Shown here: positions 39,781-50,780 of the stretch, piece by piece
How positions within the stretch are numbered: position 1 is the first letter of the stretch
How the letters are laid out: every line of letters starts with the position of its first letter
Assembly: GCA_035692425.1 (NCBI GenBank)
Contig: DASSHZ010000004.1
Location: 4,461 to 68,460, forward strand
Reading direction: 5' to 3'
Length of the DNA stretch: 64,000 nucleotides
DNA from: Nocardioidaceae bacterium
GTDB lineage: Bacteria; Actinomycetota; Actinomycetes; Propionibacteriales; Nocardioidaceae
Program-made: the position numbers and the translations under genes
The notes under the pieces: model-generated
Told to the model about the DNA's origin: nothing
The model's input: the letters and a program-made list of their open reading frames with translations, nothing else
Database searches by the model: none

Positions 39781-40371
39781 TCAGTCGCAGTCTTCGAAGA
39801 ATGTCGTCCATGCATTGGCAGCCAAGCTGTAAACGCCGACGAATGAGCACTGCATCGCCGCACCATCGGGCAGCGGGGCCGGTCCATACGATACAGGCGC
39901 CACGCCCGAATATGTCACGACCCAGGCGGGGTACTCGGCCCCGGGCTGCAGCCCCGGGTAGGTCGGTTCGCTTTCAGTAACCGAATAAAGAGCGACCGAA
40001 GGGGATTCACTCGTCAGCGCCGCCCCTAAGAAATTGGCCGGTACTTCCTGCCGCCGGAATGAGGCTAGCGCATCGGCCGCCGTTATGGAAGGGCTTAGAC
40101 TAGGTGGCGGTGGTGCAAGCGTGACTCCCTCCCCAGGGAAAGTTACGGTCACCGCCTGATCTGTCCGATGTGGTCGCACTGAACGATCCGGAACTGCTGC
40201 AGCGCTATATCCAGACAGGGTCTGCTGCATGTGTGAATTGGGGTTGGACCCGACCGAAGGCCGCTGCCCCTTTGGCATGGCGAAGGCCCAAGCTGCCAAA
40301 AGGATGATTGCAGTGCCCGCCACGGCCCCGCCGAGGAGGACGCCACGCACTGTGGAGACTCTCTTCTCCAT
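39781..40371 (-). CDS. Hypothetical membrane-anchored protein (low-GC islet)
   Basis: Strong RBS AGGAGAG 7 nt upstream of ATG 40371. One TM (GVLLGGAVAGTAIILLAAWAF). Sampled lines give 55-67% G+C. Confidence 0.5.
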   Translation of the reverse strand: MEKRVSTVRGVLLGGAVAGTAIILLAAWAFAMPKGQRPSVGSNPNSHMQQTLSGYSAAAVPDRSVRPHRTDQAVTVTFPGEGVTLAPPPPSLSPSITAADALASFRRQEVPANFLGAALTSESPSVALYSVTESEPTYPGLQPGAEYPAWVVTYSGVAPVSYGPAPLPDGAAMQCSFVGVYSLAANAWTTFFEDCD

Positions 40372-40514
40372 AGTTACTCTCCTAGGAAACCACCATTCAT
40401 CCAACTTTGACGTCATGCCGAATCGGTGAAGATCTTGAAGCCAGGGCAGGATCCGCTGAATTGATTATACCAACGTTCCCCATCTGCGCGAGTGTTGCTC
40501 CCTTGATTCTGCTT

Positions 40515-41204
40515 CTACAGTGTGTTACAGGGATACGCTATCCAGGTATCATCGCTCGCGCGCTCTCCGTGGAGGTTAGAGAACACCGTGGGCGAAGTCG
40601 AATTTCCGGGTATGTCACTAGCCAGATATACTGCTTCACCTTCGAATTGTGGAGAGAACGGATATTGCCAGTCGGTATATGGGTCCCACTTAGACTGAAG
40701 GTATAGCATCCCATCAACCTTGCTTGTAACGCGGTCACAAGTCGGATCCCAGCGTCCGTAGTAGGTGTAAGCTGACCCATACGTTACGCATGAAGACCCA
40801 AATCGCGTCTGCAAATTCGTGGATCCATTAAATTGCTGAGCGAAAAAGTAGGTACAGCTATCATACCAACGGGTATATCCTGACTGTGCCCAGCCCAAGT
40901 CGTTACCACTGGCGATCATCGCGTACGGATTTTGAAAATTGTTTTCGGTTTGGTCCGTATCACAGACAGCACCGTACCGCGTCTCGATCTTGGCGTAGGC
41001 CCCTTCCCAGGAGCCCGTGCCATAAGGCTGAGTGTAGCCATCGTGATAGTTGAACTTGCTGGTCGACCCACATGTGTATACTTCAGCCTGAGCCGGGCTG
41101 GTAGCCACGGAGATTGTTGGCGCAATGAATGCGACCAGGCTGAGAACTACAAGCAGGACGCGGAACTGTGTTGACAGACTGCCCACGCCCAACTCGTGCC
41201 TCAA
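40515..41204 (-). CDS. Hypothetical secreted Cys/Tyr/Trp-rich protein (low-GC islet); start TTG 41204 or GTG 41186
   Basis: Signal peptide ...LVAFIAPTISVATSPAQA. Sampled lines give 42-55% G+C against ~73% for neighbours. Confidence 0.6.
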   Translation of the reverse strand: MRHELGVGSLSTQFRVLLVVLSLVAFIAPTISVATSPAQAEVYTCGSTSKFNYHDGYTQPYGTGSWEGAYAKIETRYGAVCDTDQTENNFQNPYAMIASGNDLGWAQSGYTRWYDSCTYFFAQQFNGSTNLQTRFGSSCVTYGSAYTYYGRWDPTCDRVTSKVDGMLYLQSKWDPYTDWQYPFSPQFEGEAVYLASDIPGNSTSPTVFSNLHGERASDDTWIAYPCNTL

Positions 41205-41488: not shown

Positions 41489-42766
41489 TCAGTGCCCGGG
41501 GCAGGCGGCGAGCTGGGCGGAGAAGGCGGCGATCTGCTGGGTAGACAGATCGGACCCGTTCGAGGTCAGCTCGAACTGGCAGACGTTGAGCGCGATGGCG
41601 TACGGGATGACGAAAGCGTCGTTGCAGCTGGCCGAGCCGAGCTTGCGCTGGCAGCCGCGCTGCACGTTCGACGGTCCGCCGGCGACTTTCATCCAGGAGA
41701 ACAGGTCCGGCGCCGCCGACGGGCTGCCGCTGTAGGTGCTCGTCTGGCTCGCCATGCCGTGGTAGTTGGGCACGAACTGACCGCCGTAGGTGGCGCGGAA
41801 CGCATCCATGAGGTCGCGCTCTTTGGGCCACGAGCTCTCGATGCCGCCGGGCTTCGGGATCTGCCAGCCGACGTTGTCGCCGAGGTCGATCCGGGTGTGT
41901 GGCATGGCGGCCGCCTGGTCGGCCATCGACCGCTCCATGCAGTGGTACTCCCCGGCCTCGCTGTCGCCGGCCGCGGCAAGCGCCGCACCGACTGTCGGGC
42001 CGCCCTTGATGAACGGCTCGGACCAGGCCGTCGTACAGGCGGCGTTGGAGACCATCAGCACCCGCGGGTTGCCGTCGTAGCGGTCCCCGATCGCCTGGAC
42101 GAGCTGCTGGTAGAGGTCAAGGAACGAGTCGGTCCAGTATCGGGGGACGCAGAGGGCCTGGCGGTTGTAGCTGCTCACCGCGCGGACGCACGGCCCGACG
42201 ATCGAGTTCACCCAGCTCGGGGTGCTGGTGCCGGCGAAGAGCCGCACAGTCACGGTCGTGCTCGGCGGGTAGGTGCTCAGCCACTTGTCGATCAGGCCCC
42301 AGGAGAAGGTCCCCCTGACCGGCTCAAGCTCTGCCCAGGTGACCTTAACCCGCACCGACGACGGCACCCGCCCTCCGGTCCGGCCGGCCACCCAGTTAAG
42401 GCCGACCGGTGCCGCCTTCAGGCTGCCCGGCCCGGGGCCGCGGGAGGACGGCTGGGAGTGCGTCTGTGGTTCACCGGAGGTGCTCGGTGGCGAGGTGGTC
42501 CCGGGCGACGTCGACCTCGGTGCGGTTGTGGGCGTGGCCGGGCGGGCAGATCGGCCGGTCGGTCGCGGCGGGCGATGGGCGTGAGTGTGGTGGCTGCTGG
42601 GTGGGCGGAACGTGGTCCTGGCGCTCGGGCTCGGCGGCGCGCGTCGTACGTCGGACACCAGGCTCTGCCCGCGACGCGACGGATGGGCGGTCGGCCCGGC
42701 GCCGACGCTGGCACTCACGGCGATGACCGCTGCCGCGACGGCCAGCGCGCCGATGATGCTCTTCAC
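41489..42766 (-). CDS. Secreted protein with Pro/Ser/Thr-rich linker and glycoside-hydrolase-like domain
   Basis: Signal peptide, ~110-aa P/S/T/R-rich spacer, then VKVTWAELEPVRGTFSW. This is the same W..(V/L)EPV+G.F.W motif as in the 33132-34649 protein. Confidence 0.55.
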   Translation of the reverse strand: MKSIIGALAVAAAVIAVSASVGAGPTAHPSRRGQSLVSDVRRAPPSPSARTTFRPPSSHHTHAHRPPRPTGRSARPATPTTAPRSTSPGTTSPPSTSGEPQTHSQPSSRGPGPGSLKAAPVGLNWVAGRTGGRVPSSVRVKVTWAELEPVRGTFSWGLIDKWLSTYPPSTTVTVRLFAGTSTPSWVNSIVGPCVRAVSSYNRQALCVPRYWTDSFLDLYQQLVQAIGDRYDGNPRVLMVSNAACTTAWSEPFIKGGPTVGAALAAAGDSEAGEYHCMERSMADQAAAMPHTRIDLGDNVGWQIPKPGGIESSWPKERDLMDAFRATYGGQFVPNYHGMASQTSTYSGSPSAAPDLFSWMKVAGGPSNVQRGCQRKLGSASCNDAFVIPYAIALNVCQFELTSNGSDLSTQQIAAFSAQLAACPGH

Positions 42767-42977
42767 ATACCCTCCCGCGGCTCCTCCGGCAGACCAACAA
42801 CGTAAGGAGCGCTTCGCCCCGATCCGGTCTGGACACGCCGCAGTTGTGGATTGGCCCGGGACGCACAGGGCGGCGAGCCGATCGCGACGTCACTGCAGCA
42901 GGCAGGCCCTTCTCGACCCGGACGGCCGGCAAACGCGTACGGTGCAGGGGAGGCGCAGAAGGGAAACCAGCGCAGAT

Positions 42978-45500
42978 ATGGCGGCACGCAACGGCTACGA
43001 CGCCGACGGGCCGGACCCGCCCGCCGGCGGACCCGCGAAGGTCGGCCGCGCCGGGGCGCCGGCCGGCCGGCGCCCGGCCCGTGCCCGGGGGCTGGGGCGA
43101 CGACGGTCGGCCGCCGACCTCGGCCGGCTCGGGCGCCGCAGCCGTTATGCGCGGCTGCGCCAATCGATCGGCCGCCACCCCGCCGACCTGGCCCGGATGG
43201 CGGTGGCAGCAGGAGTCGTGCTCGGCTGCGTGGTGGTAGCCCTCCGGCCCGGGGTCAACCCGGTCGAGTCGGCGATCTTCGACCAGGTCGAGGCGCTCCC
43301 GAACTGGTCGTCGGGGGTATGGTCCGTGGTCGCGTGGTACGGCTCCTGGCCTGGGATCGTGCTGACCGCCGGACTCGCCCTGTATCTGGGTCGGCTGCGG
43401 CTAGGGGCCGCGCTTTGCGGCTCGGCTGTCCTCAGCTGGGTGCTCGCGTTGGTCATCCAATGGTTGGCGGGTCCACGGCCGGTCCCACCAGCGCTGTTCG
43501 AGGTCACCAGCCGACTGCCGGGCCCCCCGGGGTTCGAGTTCCCGGCCGTCGAGCTGGCGGTCGCGGCGGCCCTTGCCACGTCCGCCGGCCCCTACGTGAC
43601 CCGCTGGGTGCGCAACACCGCGTGGGTCGCGGTCGTGCTGGTTGCGGTGGCGGACGTGTTCCTCGGCCGCAACCTACCGCTGGGGGTGTTCGCCGGGGCG
43701 GTCCTCGGCTGGGGCGCGGGCACGTTCTTCCACCTGACGCTGGGGGCGCCCGGTCGGCGTACCTCGGACGCGGCGGTGCTCCTGGCCCTGCGGCAGTGCG
43801 GGATCGAGGATGCCCACGTCACGCCGGTGCCGCGCCCGTTCCTGCGGCCGCAGCTGTACGACGTGGCGACGCGTTCGGGCGAGCAGCTGCAGATGAAGGT
43901 GGTCCGCCGGCTGCACCGGCTGGCGGGACCGGCGTACCGGGTCCGGCGACTGCTCGCCTCGCTGGACGTCCAGCATGAGCCGGACCTGACGACGCCGCGC
44001 CACGAGGTCGAGCACGAGGCCTACGTCACCCTCCTGGCCGAGCGAGCCGGCGTACGCACGTTGCCGATCCTGCTCGCCGGGGAGATCGAGCACGGTCCGC
44101 CGTTCCTGATCCGCCGGCACGTGGCCGGCCACCCGCTCTCGCAGCTGACCCCGAGCGCGATCAGCGACTCCCTCCTCGACGAGCTGTGGCACGACGTCCT
44201 CGCCCTGCGGGCTGCCCGGATCACCCACCACGACCTCCGGGCCAAGAACATCGTGGTCGACGAGCGCGGCCATCCCCGCATCGCCGACTTCACGTTCAGC
44301 CGGGTCGGCGGCCCGGGGGCCCAGAGCTCACAGGACGCCGCCGAGATGCTCGTGTCCGTCGCCTCGGTGGTCGGCGTACCGCGAGCGGTCGAGAGTGCGG
44401 TGCGGGCACTGCCGGCGGACCTGCTGCGGGAGGCACTTCCTGACCTGCAGTGGCTGGCGCTGCACACCCACCTCCGTCGGCAGCTGCGGGACGGTCGAGG
44501 GTCCCTGGCTGACCTACGCGAGGCGCTGGCCGAGCGCATCGGGGAGCCGCTGCCAGGCTTCCGGTCTCCGGTCCGCCCGGCCACGCTCGCGGTGCTGCTT
44601 GCGGGTGGCCTCGCCGTCTACCTGCTGCTCCCCCAGATCTCCAGCCTCAGCCGCGTGGTCGGCTCCTTCGCGACCGCCGACTGGCGGTGGCTCCTGCTTG
44701 CCGCGGTACTGGGGCAGCTGACGACGCTGGCCGCCGCGCTGACCATGATCGCCTCGAGCCGGAAGCCGGTCCCGTGGCTGAAGACGACCGCCGTCCAGGT
44801 GGCCGCCACGTTCACCGGTCGCACGACCGCGGCCGGCGTCGGCTTCTACGGGATCAACCTCGTCTACCTCGAACGGCTCGGGCTGCGCCGGGCCAACGCG
44901 GTAGGGGTGCTGCTCATCAACCGCGCGGTGATGGGCCTGGTCAGCGCCGTGCTGACGGTGCTCGGCATACTCGTGATCGGCGACGCCGTACCGGTCGGCC
45001 AGGTCAGGGTGCCGAACGGCTGGCCGCTGTGGCTCGGCGTCGGGCTGGCCGGTCTGGCCGCGGTCGCGATAATGGCCTCACCGTTCGGCCGGGCCCGGCT
45101 GCTGCGACCCGGGTTGCGGGCGGCGCGGGACGTCGGGGCCGACCTGCTGCCTACGCTGCGGCACCCCGCCCGGGCCACCGCGCTGGTGGGGGGATCGGTT
45201 GCCTTTCTGGTGCTGTCGGCGCTGGGGCTCGTTGCCACGCTGCTGGCTTTCCAGTCGAGCTTCCCGCTGCTGGCCGTCATGGCCGTCTTCATTGTCGGGT
45301 CGACGCTCGGCCAGCTGGCGCCCACGCCTGGCGGGCTCGGGGCGGTGGAAGGGGCACTGGTCGCCGGGCTGACCGCGATCGGCATCGGCCCGACGGAGGC
45401 GGTCGCCGCCGTGTTGGCCTCGCGGCTGCTGACGTTCTGGCTCCCGGTGCTACCCGGCATCGTCGCCTTCCGGTTGCTGCAGCACCAGGGGGTGGTCTGA
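42978..45500 (+). CDS. Three-module membrane protein: degenerate PAP2-like TM domain + protein-kinase-like (Kdo/RIO-like) domain + LPG-synthase-TM (MprF flippase-like) domain
   Basis: PAP2-like remnants (GPRPVP ... FPAVE ... GRNLPLGVFAGAVLGWG). Kinase core (LQMKVV, HEVEHEAYV, ITHHDLRAKNIVVDERGHPRIADF). C-terminal polytopic region ending in APTPGGLGAVEGALV. Confidence 0.7.
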   Translation: MAARNGYDADGPDPPAGGPAKVGRAGAPAGRRPARARGLGRRRSAADLGRLGRRSRYARLRQSIGRHPADLARMAVAAGVVLGCVVVALRPGVNPVESAIFDQVEALPNWSSGVWSVVAWYGSWPGIVLTAGLALYLGRLRLGAALCGSAVLSWVLALVIQWLAGPRPVPPALFEVTSRLPGPPGFEFPAVELAVAAALATSAGPYVTRWVRNTAWVAVVLVAVADVFLGRNLPLGVFAGAVLGWGAGTFFHLTLGAPGRRTSDAAVLLALRQCGIEDAHVTPVPRPFLRPQLYDVATRSGEQLQMKVVRRLHRLAGPAYRVRRLLASLDVQHEPDLTTPRHEVEHEAYVTLLAERAGVRTLPILLAGEIEHGPPFLIRRHVAGHPLSQLTPSAISDSLLDELWHDVLALRAARITHHDLRAKNIVVDERGHPRIADFTFSRVGGPGAQSSQDAAEMLVSVASVVGVPRAVESAVRALPADLLREALPDLQWLALHTHLRRQLRDGRGSLADLREALAERIGEPLPGFRSPVRPATLAVLLAGGLAVYLLLPQISSLSRVVGSFATADWRWLLLAAVLGQLTTLAAALTMIASSRKPVPWLKTTAVQVAATFTGRTTAAGVGFYGINLVYLERLGLRRANAVGVLLINRAVMGLVSAVLTVLGILVIGDAVPVGQVRVPNGWPLWLGVGLAGLAAVAIMASPFGRARLLRPGLRAARDVGADLLPTLRHPARATALVGGSVAFLVLSALGLVATLLAFQSSFPLLAVMAVFIVGSTLGQLAPTPGGLGAVEGALVAGLTAIGIGPTEAVAAVLASRLLTFWLPVLPGIVAFRLLQHQGVV

Positions 45501-46838: not shown

Positions 46839-47080
46839 AATCCACCTCCCGGCAATCTCGCACCGAACTGCCCACGGTGTCGGGTGAAGGAGATGCTCTT
46901 CGCGTCCACCAACCTCCGACGCAGGACACTGGGTCGATTCTGCTCTGGCCCCCGCGGACGCGCAGGTCGGCGCCATCCTCCTGTCCGGGTGGCCAGGACG
47001 GTACCGAGACTCGCGGCGTGCGGACAGCCCGCACTCCGGCCGCTCGCGGTCGGTCGGCCGGACGGCATAGGCTCGCGGCC

Positions 47081-48445
47081 GTGAGCGAGCTCTCCCCAGC
47101 AACCGAGACGGCCCTGCACCGGGTGGTCGCGGCCAGGCAGTCCGAGGGGCGCGTGCCCGGAATCGCCGCTGGTGTCGTGCGCGACGGCCGGCTGGCCTGG
47201 ACCGGCGGGGTCGGTGCCGCGGACCTGGCCGAGCCGGGCCGCCGGCCCGACGAGGACACGCAGTTCCTGATCGCGTCGAACACCAAGACGTTCACCGCCG
47301 TCCTCGTCATGCAGCTGCGCGACGAGGGGAGGCTTGATCTCGACGACCCATTGGAGCGGCACATCCCGGAGAGCACACATGGCGGTGTGACGATCCGACA
47401 GCTCCTCGCGCACGTCAGCGGGATGCAGCGCGAGCCGGTCGGCGACGTCTGGGAGACCCTGACGTATCCCGACCGGGTCGCCCTGGTCGCCGGCTGGAAC
47501 GAGGCCGAGCGCATCCTCCGCCCGCACTACCGCTGGCACTACTCCAACCTCTGCTACAGCATGTTGGGCGAAGTCGTGGCCCGCCTCGATGGCCGCGAAT
47601 GGGTGGACAGCCTGCGAGCCCGCATCCTGGAGCCCCTTGGCATGAACCGGACCACGCTCGGGCTCGTCCCGCCCTGTGCCCGGGGCTACTACGTCCCGCC
47701 CTTCTCCGACGTGCCGGTCGTGGAGCCCGTCCTCGACATCGACGCGATGGCCGCGGCCGGCGGGCTCGCCAGCACCGTCGCGGACCTCGCGACCTGGACT
47801 TCGTTCGTCGCCGACCCGGTAGCGGAGGTGCTTAGTCCCGACACCGTCGACGAGATGTGCCAGCCGCAGATCATGGCCGATCTCGAGACCTGGCAGGCGG
47901 CGTGGGGACTGGGGTTCATGCTCCAGCGCAGCGGAGATCGGGTCTGGGTCGGCCACACGGGCGGCATGCCTGGCCACATCACCGGCGTCTTCACCCAGCG
48001 GAAGGCGAAGGCGGCCGCGATCGTGCTGATGAACTCCTCCGGCACCGTCGACCCGGCCGCCTTCGCGATCGAGCTCGGTGGGTTGTCCCTGGACCGTGAC
48101 CCGTCCGAGCCCGAGGCCTGGACGGCGGGCACCGGCGTACCCCCCGAGCTCGCCGGGGTGCTCGGCATCTGGTACTCCGAAGGTCAGCCGTACGTCTTCA
48201 GCGTCCGGGCCGGCCGGCTGGAGGCGCGCGCCGCCAACGCACCCGCCCAGCTCCCCCCATCGGTGTTCGTGCCCGAGGGCGAGGACCGGTACCGCACCCA
48301 GTCCGGCCGAGAGACCGGCGAGCTGCTGCGCATCACCAGGGCAGCCGATGGCACCGTCGCCAAGATGAACTGGGCTACCTACCTGGTGACCCGTGAGCCG
48401 CTTGCGTTCGGCGAGTGGCTGCGGGCCGACGGAGCAGGGACGTAA
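47081..48445 (+). CDS. Serine hydrolase (beta-lactamase / PBP4-like family)
   Basis: S-x-x-K motif in FLIASNTKTFTAV and a later YSN motif (WHYSNLCY). GTG 47081. Confidence 0.85.
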   Translation: MSELSPATETALHRVVAARQSEGRVPGIAAGVVRDGRLAWTGGVGAADLAEPGRRPDEDTQFLIASNTKTFTAVLVMQLRDEGRLDLDDPLERHIPESTHGGVTIRQLLAHVSGMQREPVGDVWETLTYPDRVALVAGWNEAERILRPHYRWHYSNLCYSMLGEVVARLDGREWVDSLRARILEPLGMNRTTLGLVPPCARGYYVPPFSDVPVVEPVLDIDAMAAAGGLASTVADLATWTSFVADPVAEVLSPDTVDEMCQPQIMADLETWQAAWGLGFMLQRSGDRVWVGHTGGMPGHITGVFTQRKAKAAAIVLMNSSGTVDPAAFAIELGGLSLDRDPSEPEAWTAGTGVPPELAGVLGIWYSEGQPYVFSVRAGRLEARAANAPAQLPPSVFVPEGEDRYRTQSGRETGELLRITRAADGTVAKMNWATYLVTREPLAFGEWLRADGAGT

Positions 48446-48804: not shown

Positions 48805-50394
48805 CTAGCAGCCGGTCGCGGCGCTCACCGGGTGTGCGCCGGGGGCTGCGTGCCCGCCGTTCCAGACGTTGCCCTGCCCGTCCCAGTAGGACGGGACGAA
48901 CTTGCCCAGATGCACTGTCTCGAAGCGGTTGTCCGCGAAGACCCCATCCTTGACCGCGCCGATCTGCAAGGCAGTGCCCGGACCGGCCACCACGTTGCAG
49001 GTCACCCTGGTCCGGTAGCTGCTCGAGTTCATCGACGGCGCGGTGAGCTTGTCGTCCATCATGCGGAGGCTGAACCCCGCAGTGCGGAAGTCGGCCACGA
49101 AGTTGTGCGACCAGACGTTGCCCCAGCCGGACATCTCCTCGTTGTAGCCGATTGCGACTCCCCGGGCGGTGTTGTAGGTGAACACGTTGTAGGAGCCGTC
49201 CTGATCCGTCGCGAAGGCCCTCGCATCACCCGGCAGGTCTTCCACGTAGTTGTGGGTCACCTCGTTGTACGACGACCCGCCGCCGACGCGGATCCCCTCG
49301 TACATGAAGTGCTCGGTCCCGGCCGCGATGGCATAGATGTGGTTGTAGGCGACCGTCCAGCCATCACTGATGCTGCCCAGCCAGACGCCCGGCCCAACCC
49401 CGCAGGCGATGTTGTGGATGGTGTTGCCCGCAATCGTCCCGTAGCGGTTCATCGCCGAGTGGATCCCCTTGAGGGAGATGTCGTTGTCGATGATCTTGAC
49501 TCCGTCGGAGGGCACCAGGGTGTGGTTGATCTGCCCAGCCGAGTAGGCGATCGCGTGCGCGTCGGCGGCGAAGTCGTCGGTCCCGTGCCCGGGGATGGCC
49601 CGCCGGGCCTGCCAGTTCCCCGACTTGACTAGGTCGCCGAACCACTTCTGGAAGGGCCCGGCACCCTCGCCGGCGAGGAAGACGCCGCCGACGATGTCCA
49701 GGTGGCTGATCGTCCAGTAGCTTGCTCCCTGCTCGAACCGGACGGTGCGGTTCGGATCGGGCGAGGACGCCGAGCACGGCGGCATGGACAGGTGAGCCGT
49801 GAGCGTCACCGGCCCGTTGCCGGCCGGGCTGATCGTGATCGGCGCCGTTCGGGTGCCGGAACGGCGGATGGTCAGCGCACCGCTGTAGGTGCCGGCTCGC
49901 AGCCGGATCGCCGTACCGGGTGTGGCGTTGCCGATGGCCGCAGCCAGCTGCGACTCCGTGCCGACAGTGACGACCCGGGTCGGTGCCGGATCGCCGGTTG
50001 GCAGGTCCGGCGGCCCGGTGGTCGGGTCCTGGCCCGGCCAGGCGGGGCCCCCGGAGCCGGGCGGAGGCAGACCCGATCCGGGCGACCCGTGCGACCTCGA
50101 GGTCGGCGACCCGCTCCGCGTGGCAGCCGTTGGACCCGATCCGTGGGCGCCCGCGCGCGAGCGCCCGGCCGTCGGCGCCGTCGGCGAGGCGGTGTCGGCG
50201 GCCGGGGTGTGCCCGGCCACGACCAAGCGTCCGACACCGCCACCGCGGAGGGCGGGACCGCTGGGCGTGGAGGTCGCCGGCCTGTCGGCAGCGGCGACGG
50301 AATGCGGCGGGGCCGAGCCGCAGCCGGCGATCGTCGCCACTGCCGCGAGGACCGCGGCGACCAGGGCCGAGCGGTTGCGGCGGCCTGGGGGCAT
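48805..50394 (-). CDS. Lipoprotein with right-handed parallel beta-helix (pectate-lyase-fold) domain
   Basis: Lipobox VATIAGCGS, ~130-aa Pro/Gly/Ser/Thr linker, then repeated N-x-(I/V)-type coils (IIDNDISL, IAGNTIHN, VAYNHIY, VTHNYVED, FTYNTARG). Confidence 0.65.
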   Translation of the reverse strand: MPPGRRNRSALVAAVLAAVATIAGCGSAPPHSVAAADRPATSTPSGPALRGGGVGRLVVAGHTPAADTASPTAPTAGRSRAGAHGSGPTAATRSGSPTSRSHGSPGSGLPPPGSGGPAWPGQDPTTGPPDLPTGDPAPTRVVTVGTESQLAAAIGNATPGTAIRLRAGTYSGALTIRRSGTRTAPITISPAGNGPVTLTAHLSMPPCSASSPDPNRTVRFEQGASYWTISHLDIVGGVFLAGEGAGPFQKWFGDLVKSGNWQARRAIPGHGTDDFAADAHAIAYSAGQINHTLVPSDGVKIIDNDISLKGIHSAMNRYGTIAGNTIHNIACGVGPGVWLGSISDGWTVAYNHIYAIAAGTEHFMYEGIRVGGGSSYNEVTHNYVEDLPGDARAFATDQDGSYNVFTYNTARGVAIGYNEEMSGWGNVWSHNFVADFRTAGFSLRMMDDKLTAPSMNSSSYRTRVTCNVVAGPGTALQIGAVKDGVFADNRFETVHLGKFVPSYWDGQGNVWNGGHAAPGAHPVSAATGC

Positions 50395-50780
50395 GGAACG
50401 GCCAGCAGGGGACGGGGGCATGCGGGGACACCCTTCCATGGCGCCTGCGAAGTTAGCTGTCGGGTTCGGGCCGGAGGGCTGGCCCGGCCACCCGGCCGCG
50501 CTTCCAACCCGGTGGCTTCACCCCAAGGTGCCGTCGAGATCCCCCGCCCCGGACAAGCGCTCCGGCGGCCGTCGGCACCCGTGCCGCGCAAGGCACGGCG
50601 TTGGGTTCTCCGCTCCTGTCCCGTACCAGCAAGGTCGGGGGTGCGCCGGGTCGGGGACAGGGCTCGGCGTCGGCCGCGGCGCGTACTTCTGCCCGGGAGC
50701 ATAGCCCAGGGGGCAGATCGTGGCGAGCGCCGCCCCGGCCGGGGCTCAACGGGCCGGACCTTAAGTCCGACTGCCCCGAC

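Follow-up and report, generated by a model that had tools for sequence, protein, structure and literature searches.

The locus that we describe raises the question of what a membrane protein does when it joins a lipid translocator to two enzyme folds that are both degenerate. The gene lies in a 64,000-nucleotide stretch of a Nocardioidaceae genome (contig DASSHZ010000004.1, positions 4,461 to 68,460 of the forward strand; hereafter the window) and specifies one inner-membrane protein with three modules: a PAP2 fold, a minimal kinase fold and a C-terminal PplT translocator (Table 1). The reading that we favour, and to which we assign a probability of about 0.5, is that lipid translocation by the PplT domain is what has been conserved, and that the dead PAP2-like module and the kinase-like module would be pseudo-enzyme or regulatory modules derived from a phosphatase-kinase-flippase ancestor.

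We have found that the first membrane module has the fold of a PAP2 phosphatase and almost none of its catalytic residues, as the original prediction had proposed. Modelled alone with AlphaFold2 (AF2) from 41 sequences, the module reaches a predicted local distance difference test score (pLDDT) of 90.2 and a predicted template modelling score (pTM) of 0.88, and its best Foldseek match is Aquifex aeolicus LpxE (6ebu; template modelling (TM) score 0.79, root-mean-square deviation 3.0 Å). Further matches are to Bacillus subtilis PgpB (5jki), Escherichia coli PgpB, G6PC1 and class-A acid phosphatases; almost all of the top matches belong to the PAP2 superfamily, with PgpB at a TM score of 0.63. 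A phmmer alignment to LpxE sets the relic motifs C1 to C3 in register. The Pfam PAP2 profile (PF01569) matches residues 145-253 at 23.4 bits (E 5.5e-5), under its gathering threshold (GA) of 27.2, and a single-sequence search of the PDB with the PAP2 region returns only LpxE, at E 0.045. Judged by these scores, the PAP2 homology of this protein is transitive, running through deep relatives in the family that match PF01569 at 64-125 bits. In PAP2 enzymes the C3 His is the nucleophile and the C2 His the acid, and the Lys and Arg bind phosphate. Among the tested catalytic residues of KxxxxxxRP, PSGH and SRxxxxxHxxxD, only Arg167 is left here: Ile160 stands for the C1 Lys seven residues upstream of Arg167, Glu192 for the C2 His, and Asp226, Asn232 and Gly236 for the Arg, His and Asp of C3. 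Throughout the close clade (116 aligned sequences of at least 49% identity; a separate 30-sequence alignment was also used) the C1 Lys and the C3 Arg are absent, and the C3 His and Asp are kept in only 27 and 24 members, respectively. Given the established mechanism, these losses should make phosphatase activity impossible for every member of the close clade.

The second module retains more of what catalysis would require. In the whole-protein AF2 model (pLDDT 77.8, pTM 0.55) the kinase region forms three beta strands, a long alphaC helix, the catalytic-loop strands and an alphaF-like helix, and Foldseek matches the model to PknB, PRPK/Bud32 and RIOK2 (probability 1.0, TMt 0.43-0.53), in keeping with the kinase-like fold lacking a Gly-rich loop that had been read from the sequence. 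That loop is absent from the alignment of the close clade, and canonical relatives carry 'ARGSxP' in its place. The Pfam Pkinase profile (PF00069) matches over the catalytic loop (residues 409-447; 20.4 bits, below its GA of 31.7), while the NCBIfam matches to the Bud32 and Kdo kinase hidden Markov models (HMMs) are weak and do not reach the family cut-offs (20.3 bits vs 125 and 14 vs 142). The longest match of the family profile to PDB sequences is the kinase domain of WbdD, over about 100 residues (E 4e-7). The kinase pentad (beta3 K307, alphaC E347, catalytic D419, N424 and the DFG-position D437) is complete in this protein, with HRD changed to HHD and DFG to DFT. The DFG Asp lies about 36 residues from the alphaF Asp in PKA, and 16 residues from it in 117 of the 118 full-length representatives on which our counts for the wider family are based; because this spacing is only 16 residues, the module has neither an activation segment nor a P+1 loop, and the APE motif is likewise lacking. 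The distance from the beta3 Lys to the alphaC Glu, 19 residues in PKA, is 40 residues in 99/118 representatives, 39 in 18 and 41 in one, and the extra length is a basic insert specific to this fusion family.

Similarity to Hanks kinases, PknB included, in both Foldseek and HMM searches, together with the HRDLRxxN/DFG signature of the canonical relatives, could be taken to suggest a signalling protein, in which the PAP2-like module would sense an outer lipid phosphate such as undecaprenyl diphosphate (C55-PP), the kinase-like module would relay the signal as a Ser/Thr kinase or a scaffold, and the PplT domain would act as an anchor or co-sensor. Indeed, membrane-linked signal transduction is among the possibilities suggested in a preprint on PplT domains (Hauser et al., bioRxiv 10.1101/2022.03.11.483950). 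We regard such a role as very unlikely in view of the missing activation loop, APE motif and P+1 segment, the lack of any conserved partner or regulator gene nearby, and the presence of the checked PplT residues in 116/116 close-clade members, which favours a working translocator over an anchor.

The identity of the C-terminal module as an MprF-flippase-like domain is borne out by two profiles that pass their cut-offs. LPG_synthase_TM (PF03706) covers residues 541-827 at 78.6 bits against a GA of 33.4 and spans profile positions 7-302 of 302, and the TIGR00374 flippase-like domain scores 46.2 bits against a cut-off of 43.2. The MprF equivalog NF033480 scores 53.5 bits against 600 and is matched at model positions 9-294 of 841 alone, that is, in its flippase half, the aminoacyl-phosphatidylglycerol (aaPG) synthase domain being absent from the fusion protein. 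A single-sequence PDB search with the PplT region gave no match. All eight of the flippase motif residues that we checked are present in every member of the close clade. We note that the source genome also encodes a stand-alone PF03706/PplT protein on another contig (15037-15945, minus strand; open frame of 350 amino acids (aa); 71 bits).

The distribution of charge suggests how these modules sit in the membrane. There are 17 Lys or Arg residues within N-terminal residues 1-67, and the short loops that follow transmembrane helices (TM) 2 and 4 are basic, unlike those bearing the relic C1/C2 and C3 motifs. With six helices, the positive-inside rule would put both the N-terminal tail and the kinase module on the cytoplasmic side, and would expose the relic PAP2 site at the outer face in the manner of PgpB-type enzymes. 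By analogy with MprF, the PplT domain would have its N-terminus inside. The tail itself has a pLDDT below 50 over residues 1-51 and is gapped in the homologue alignment.

If the phosphatase is dead, the kinase-like module could still be at work, and this is what the original prediction had supposed: an active kinase of a lipid or lipid-linked glycan whose product is flipped by the PplT domain, with the pseudo-PAP2 domain binding the substrate. For this protein taken by itself the proposal has much to commend it, since all five residues of the pentad are present and the kinase domain of WbdD, an enzyme that phosphorylates undecaprenyl-PP-linked mannan, is the nearest solved relative in sequence, with a match of about 100 residues. 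The absence of an activation segment, evident from the 16-residue spacing, resembles kinases with non-protein substrates or atypical kinases, and the pentad is kept in 19 of the 73 representatives that have no PAP2 motif left. The coupling of phosphorylation to flipping fares less well among close relatives, however. The pentad is intact in only 63/116 members of the close clade and broken in 46%, with the kinase domain conserved equally in both groups; in addition, the Gly-rich loop has been lost in the close clade, and HRD and DFG have become HHD and DFT. We therefore think an active kinase possible, but on the whole rather doubtful.

We find that loss of catalytic residues has not been accompanied by relaxed conservation of either module. 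Within the close clade, mean pairwise identity is 0.54 for the PAP2-like module, 0.62 for the kinase N-lobe, 0.54 for the kinase C-lobe and 0.57 for the PplT domain. Among all 20-residue stretches of the protein, residues 341-360, with the alphaC motif HEVEHEAY, vary least, and the PGGLGAVE and FTGRTT segments of the PplT domain come next. The ratio of kinase to PplT conservation is 1.04 in pentad-intact and 1.03 in pentad-broken members (Mann-Whitney p=0.51). Such equal conservation of the kinase domain with or without the pentad indicates that the module is kept for a role in place of phosphotransfer or alongside it. On these alignments, catalysis is not the conserved role of the kinase-like module in the close clade, and both relic modules remain under purifying selection equal to that on the PplT domain.

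The same measurements bear on the idea that the PplT domain alone is functional and that the two N-terminal modules are evolutionary baggage in the course of being lost. Their catalytic residues are indeed decaying, and stand-alone PplT proteins exist, one of them in the source genome. Baggage, however, would hardly be conserved as strongly as the PplT domain, contain the most conserved stretch of the protein (residues 341-360, in the kinase-like module) and keep its module lengths and spacings fixed (16 residues in 117/118 representatives and 40 residues in 99/118). Moreover, phmmer matches are mostly about 760-820 aa long and extend over most of the query, and the shorter ones could be fragments. 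We consider this idea highly improbable. We also considered whether the protein might be the silent partner of an active paralogue, and rejected this: five complete or draft genomes from the clade contain no canonical paralogue and carry the fusion gene in single copy, and the source genome, a metagenome-assembled genome (MAG), has one copy at 68% completeness.

Where the relic modules came from is suggested by the wider family. Deep relatives carry K(x6)RP, PSGH and R(x5)H(x3)D as well as 'FVK', 'EHEA', 'HRDLRxxN' and 'DFG', and the NCBIfam models that match them best are those for undecaprenyl-diphosphatase (SepP, PRK11837), PgpB, LpxE, Bud32 and Kdo kinase. Nine of the 12 scanned relatives with PAP2 above cut-off also have Pkinase above cut-off. 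In several canonical relatives Kdo, RIO1 or APH is above cut-off (Pfam Kdo just over 21.3 bits), and the Bud32 HMM scores 40-60 bits, under its cut-off. Among the representatives, the pentad is intact in 23 and broken in one of the 24 that have all three PAP2 motifs intact, intact in 11 and broken in 10 of the 21 that have one or two, and intact in 19 and broken in 54 of the 73 that have none; our protein is one of the 19 that have the pentad and no PAP2 motif. In a tree built from PplT columns alone, fully catalytic members are scattered along an unresolved backbone, and there are three derived clades without PAP2 motifs, with Shimodaira-Hasegawa-like approximate likelihood ratio test (SH-aLRT) values of 96-97, one of which holds this protein. 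This pattern, with catalytic members along the backbone and degenerate derived clades, fits an active ancestor followed by repeated degeneration.

Such an ancestor would most probably have carried out a self-contained cycle on one phosphorylated lipid, in which the head-group phosphate would be altered on one face of the membrane, the lipid flipped, and the alteration reversed on the opposite face. The PAP2 similarity points to a polyprenyl phosphate or diphosphate, or a phospholipid, as candidate substrate. A more specific proposal is that the ancestral full form was a one-polypeptide lipid-phosphate cycle machine capable of directional, ATP-dependent flipping, with an outward PAP2 phosphatase, a PplT translocator and an inward kinase. 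Undecaprenyl or decaprenyl diphosphate, for example, would be dephosphorylated outside, the carrier returned, and the carrier re-phosphorylated inside, and the protein described here would descend from it as a pseudo-enzyme, with the chemistry lost and the lipid-binding sites and gating retained. We offer this proposal tentatively and think it unlikely to be correct in full.

Conserved translocation with regulatory pseudo-enzyme modules remains the reading that we prefer. Since the phosphatase appears dead in all members of this clade and kinase catalysis dispensable in about half, translocation by the PplT domain would be the conserved activity. The dead PAP2 pocket might be a site in the outer leaflet where a lipid phosphate is bound or handed off, and the kinase-like module might serve as a cytoplasmic nucleotide-binding or structural gate; with the pentad intact, ATP binding and possibly phosphotransfer may persist in this particular protein. 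Bud32 and RIO proteins act as ATPase switches, and Pseudomonas aeruginosa MprF is reportedly a promiscuous scramblase, both of which would be in keeping with a passive translocator that has acquired a gate. Several points weigh against this reading. The intact pentad of this protein fits an active kinase equally well. Of the PplT domains, that of MprF is the one shown to flip lipids, GpgF and YbhN being predicted flippases. The pTM of the whole-protein model leaves the packing of the modules uncertain, and membrane sidedness is a prediction. Finally, the tendency of PAP2 and kinase residues to be lost together tracks phylogeny and is non-significant in independent contrasts (p=1, with only 2-6 usable pairs), and we do not claim that phosphatase and kinase were lost in a coupled manner.

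The family is large, with full-length members of some 760-850 aa across many Actinomycetota, and its shared architecture shows that the gene is real. A word-seeded search returned 201 relatives; among the matches listed, identities are 49-68%, and nearly all are full-length proteins of 724-856 aa whose alignments take in 87-100% of the query. Close relatives occur in Nocardioidaceae, Segeticoccus, Intrasporangium, Sinomonas, Sciscionella and Halopolyspora. A phmmer search of 1.84 billion 50%-identity representatives gave 635 matches at E<1e-30, mostly proteins of 760-820 aa aligned from about residue 65 to 838, and a scan of species-representative genomes added Arthrobacter terrae, many Pseudonocardia, Saccharopolyspora (including S. 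spinosa), Amycolatopsis, Gandjariella, Actinomadura, Nitriliruptorales and Acidimicrobiia/Ilumatobacteraceae. When the phylum was sampled evenly, at least 67 of 401 genomes, the source genome included, had a match at E<=1e-20, patchily by family; all our genome counts for the fusion family are lower bounds. One member from that sample, of 791 aa, is found in Mycobacterium lacus. A possible orthologue of it would be Rv0585c, a 795-aa membrane protein of M. tuberculosis, on which none of our conclusions rests. The literature on Rv0585c yielded passing mentions only, and the Gap/Sap family named alongside it was set aside as belonging to the LysE superfamily and not to PF03706. We also note relatives of 1000-1978 aa in which these three modules recur in tandem; four of them (P0125, P0129, P0130 and P0133; 1557-1978 aa) contain at least two tandem PplT/PAP2/kinase sets, and these giants may be genuine fusions, or gene calling may have run neighbouring paralogues together.

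The same module order in more than 115 full-length homologues upholds the original call of one gene, and every motif string quoted with it is found at its position in the protein (PRP at residues 166-168, FPAVE at 188-192, ADVFLGRNLPLG at 225-236, LQMKVV at 304, HEVEHEAY at 342, ITHHDLRAKN at 415, RIADF at 434 and APTPGGLGAVEG at 781). An assembly or frameshift artefact that fused two or three genes, the outcome against which the original prediction had guarded, is next to inconceivable, given that isolates such as Saccharopolyspora spinosa, Arthrobacter terrae and Halopolyspora algeriensis, and over 100 further assemblies, carry an uninterrupted open reading frame (ORF) with all three modules. 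The plus-strand frame is free of stops from 42585 to 45500, and G+C content along the gene is 0.72-0.76. We favour the ATG at 42978 as the start, because it matches the 'MA..N' N-termini in the homologue alignment, is preceded by a purine-rich stretch and is separated by a 212-bp divergent spacer from the minus-strand gene that begins at 42766. The open frame upstream of 42978 overlaps that gene and is non-coding.

Table 1. The fusion gene and its parts, in window coordinates (aa, residues of the encoded protein).
Feature	Position	Strand	Evidence or conservation
Whole gene, PAP2-like + kinase-like + PplT fusion, 840 aa plus stop	42978..45500	+	ORF, Pfam, homologues
Disordered N-terminal tail of variable length, aa 1-61, rich in Arg, Pro and Gly; predicted cytoplasmic	42978..43160	+	
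PAP2-fold 6-TM module, aa 62-256, predicted catalytically dead	43161..43745	+	AF2, Foldseek, Pfam sub-GA, phmmer LpxE
Relic PAP2 motif C1 (PRP, aa 166-168)	43473..43481	+	Arg167 kept 116/116; upstream Lys 0/116
Relic PAP2 motif C2 (FPAVE for PSGH, aa 188-192)	43539..43553	+	His in 74/116, Glu here
Relic PAP2 motif C3 (ADVFLGRNLPLG for SRxxxxxHxxxD, aa 225-236)	43650..43685	+	Arg 0/116
Minimal protein-kinase-like fold, aa 262-448, predicted cytoplasmic	43761..44321	+	Foldseek, WbdD profile match, topology
Putative beta3 Lys307	43896..43898	+	K in 94/116 of clade, else R/T/E/Q/D
Catalytic-loop equivalent HHDLRAKN, aa 417-424	44226..44249	+	HRD in canonical relatives
DFG equivalent DFT, aa 437-439	44286..44294	+	Asp kept 90/116; 16 residues to alphaF Asp453
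Helical C-lobe remainder + linker, aa 449-530	44322..44567	+	Whole-protein model
PplT / LPG_synthase_TM (MprF-flippase-type) membrane domain, aa 531-840	44568..45497	+	PF03706, TIGR00374
FTGRTT motif, aa 612-617	44811..44828	+	F612, R615, T617 each 116/116
APTPGGLGAVEG motif, aa 781-792, family hallmark	45318..45353	+	P782, G785, E791 each 116/116

The genes around the fusion gene say little about its function. The convergent neighbour is a CMAS-family methyltransferase (E 4e-90), and beyond it lies a beta-lactamase-family serine hydrolase (46877-48445, plus strand; PF00144 at E 1e-62, C-terminal DUF7586 at E 5e-26) whose start adjoins the region in which the divergent CMAS gene begins. Both identities are as originally assigned, but a functional link to the fusion gene does not hold up. 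Three homologue loci show no conserved neighbour beyond genus-level synteny, and clustering of the flanking ORFs of 62 named loci and the window found genus-level synteny only, with none common to the window. Likewise, a Pfam scan of the neighbourhoods of three canonical members (tmk/holB, chromate transporter, UvrD, LigD) revealed no recurring partner. Because no gene neighbour is conserved, we regard the CMAS and beta-lactamase neighbours as incidental and the fusion gene as a self-contained unit.

Other features of the window and of the homologue loci are recorded here in their own right. The source genome is a 1.86-Mb MAG, 68% complete. Within the window, G+C content dips to 0.50-0.58 at 40000-41200, against flanks of about 0.70-0.75; the two minus-strand ORFs there, 39781-40416 (211 aa) and 40515-41204 (229 aa, with a signal-like N-terminus), are without a Pfam match, and this DNA may have been horizontally acquired. 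The gene divergent from the fusion gene (41489-42766, minus strand, 425 aa) begins in the manner of a signal peptide and contains a long region rich in Pro, Ser, Thr and Arg, with no Pfam family at E<=0.001. A further minus-strand ORF, 48805-50439 (544 aa), has an N-terminus resembling that of a lipoprotein and a low-complexity linker rich in Pro, Gly, Ser and Thr, again with no Pfam match at E<=0.001. In the MAG that holds homologue P0033, a near relative of the Sinomonas humi protein, the gene upstream of it and divergent from it (L003:5230-7842, minus strand, 870 aa) fuses a monogalactosyldiacylglycerol (MGDG)-synthase/GT28 domain to a wax-ester synthase/diacylglycerol acyltransferase (DGAT) and adjoins a squalene-hopene cyclase gene and a radical-SAM gene, a lipid-rich context that is not conserved elsewhere. 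Upstream of one canonical member, L098:3873-5708 (plus strand) joins a major facilitator superfamily (MFS) transporter (residues 1-323) to a thymidylate kinase (residues 394-581), and holB comes next; the combination may be an unusual fusion, or may reflect a missed stop or start.

Set beside known systems, the protein shares features with each of three and departs from each. Its C-terminal 310 residues are a bona fide domain of the MprF/PplT/UPF0104/PF03706 group, which includes YbhN and the predicted flippases GpgF and HexF, and carry the PGGLGxxE hallmark. The fusion of a translocator with a lipid-modifying module recalls MprF; unlike in MprF, there is no aaPG synthase domain, and the modules fused at the N-terminus are PAP2 and kinase folds, both degenerate here. 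The protein shares the 6-TM fold and the relic motifs in register with PAP2 phosphatases such as A. aeolicus LpxE, B. subtilis and E. coli PgpB and the BcrC/YbjG type, but it has replaced the C1 Lys, the C2 His and the C3 Arg, His and Asp, and has two more modules fused. With Bud32/PRPK, RIO, Kdo kinase/WaaP and the WbdD kinase domain it shares a kinase fold without an activation segment, and it differs from them in scoring far under their cut-offs, in the 40-residue beta3-to-alphaC interval with its basic insert, in lying between two membrane domains, and in having catalytic residues that vary among close relatives.

The original prediction knew of no characterised protein with this three-part architecture, and in the literature that we searched we found no characterised member and no mention of the PAP2 module or of its pseudo-enzyme state. 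The architecture is not wholly new to the record, however, in that Hauser et al. (bioRxiv 10.1101/2022.03.11.483950) list kinase-PplT fusions of Actinobacteria among the ten commonest PplT architectures. What is new here is the large family, its canonical deep branches and the predicted dead phosphatase throughout the close clade; the kinase-PplT fusion was already known. NCBI and JGI carry hundreds of members under generic names, and those given to close homologues, 'LPG synthase domain-containing' and 'undecaprenyl-diphosphatase', are misleading, because the MprF synthase domain is absent and phosphatase activity is predicted to be impossible.

To our knowledge, prokaryotic flippases of phospholipids and carrier lipids are poorly known apart from MprF. 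For the window alone the gain is one of annotation, and the single gene is ordinary; the interest lies in the pattern at the level of the family. This family is widespread in Actinomycetota, with hosts that include Saccharopolyspora, Pseudonocardia, Amycolatopsis and Mycobacterium, and it joins a translocator to two enzyme folds that are predicted to lie on opposite faces of the membrane. Its catalytic and double-pseudo-enzyme members thus provide a natural series in which the coupling of head-group chemistry to flipping could be followed, and the same series may be useful for learning what part pseudo-phosphatase and pseudo-kinase modules play within a membrane transporter.

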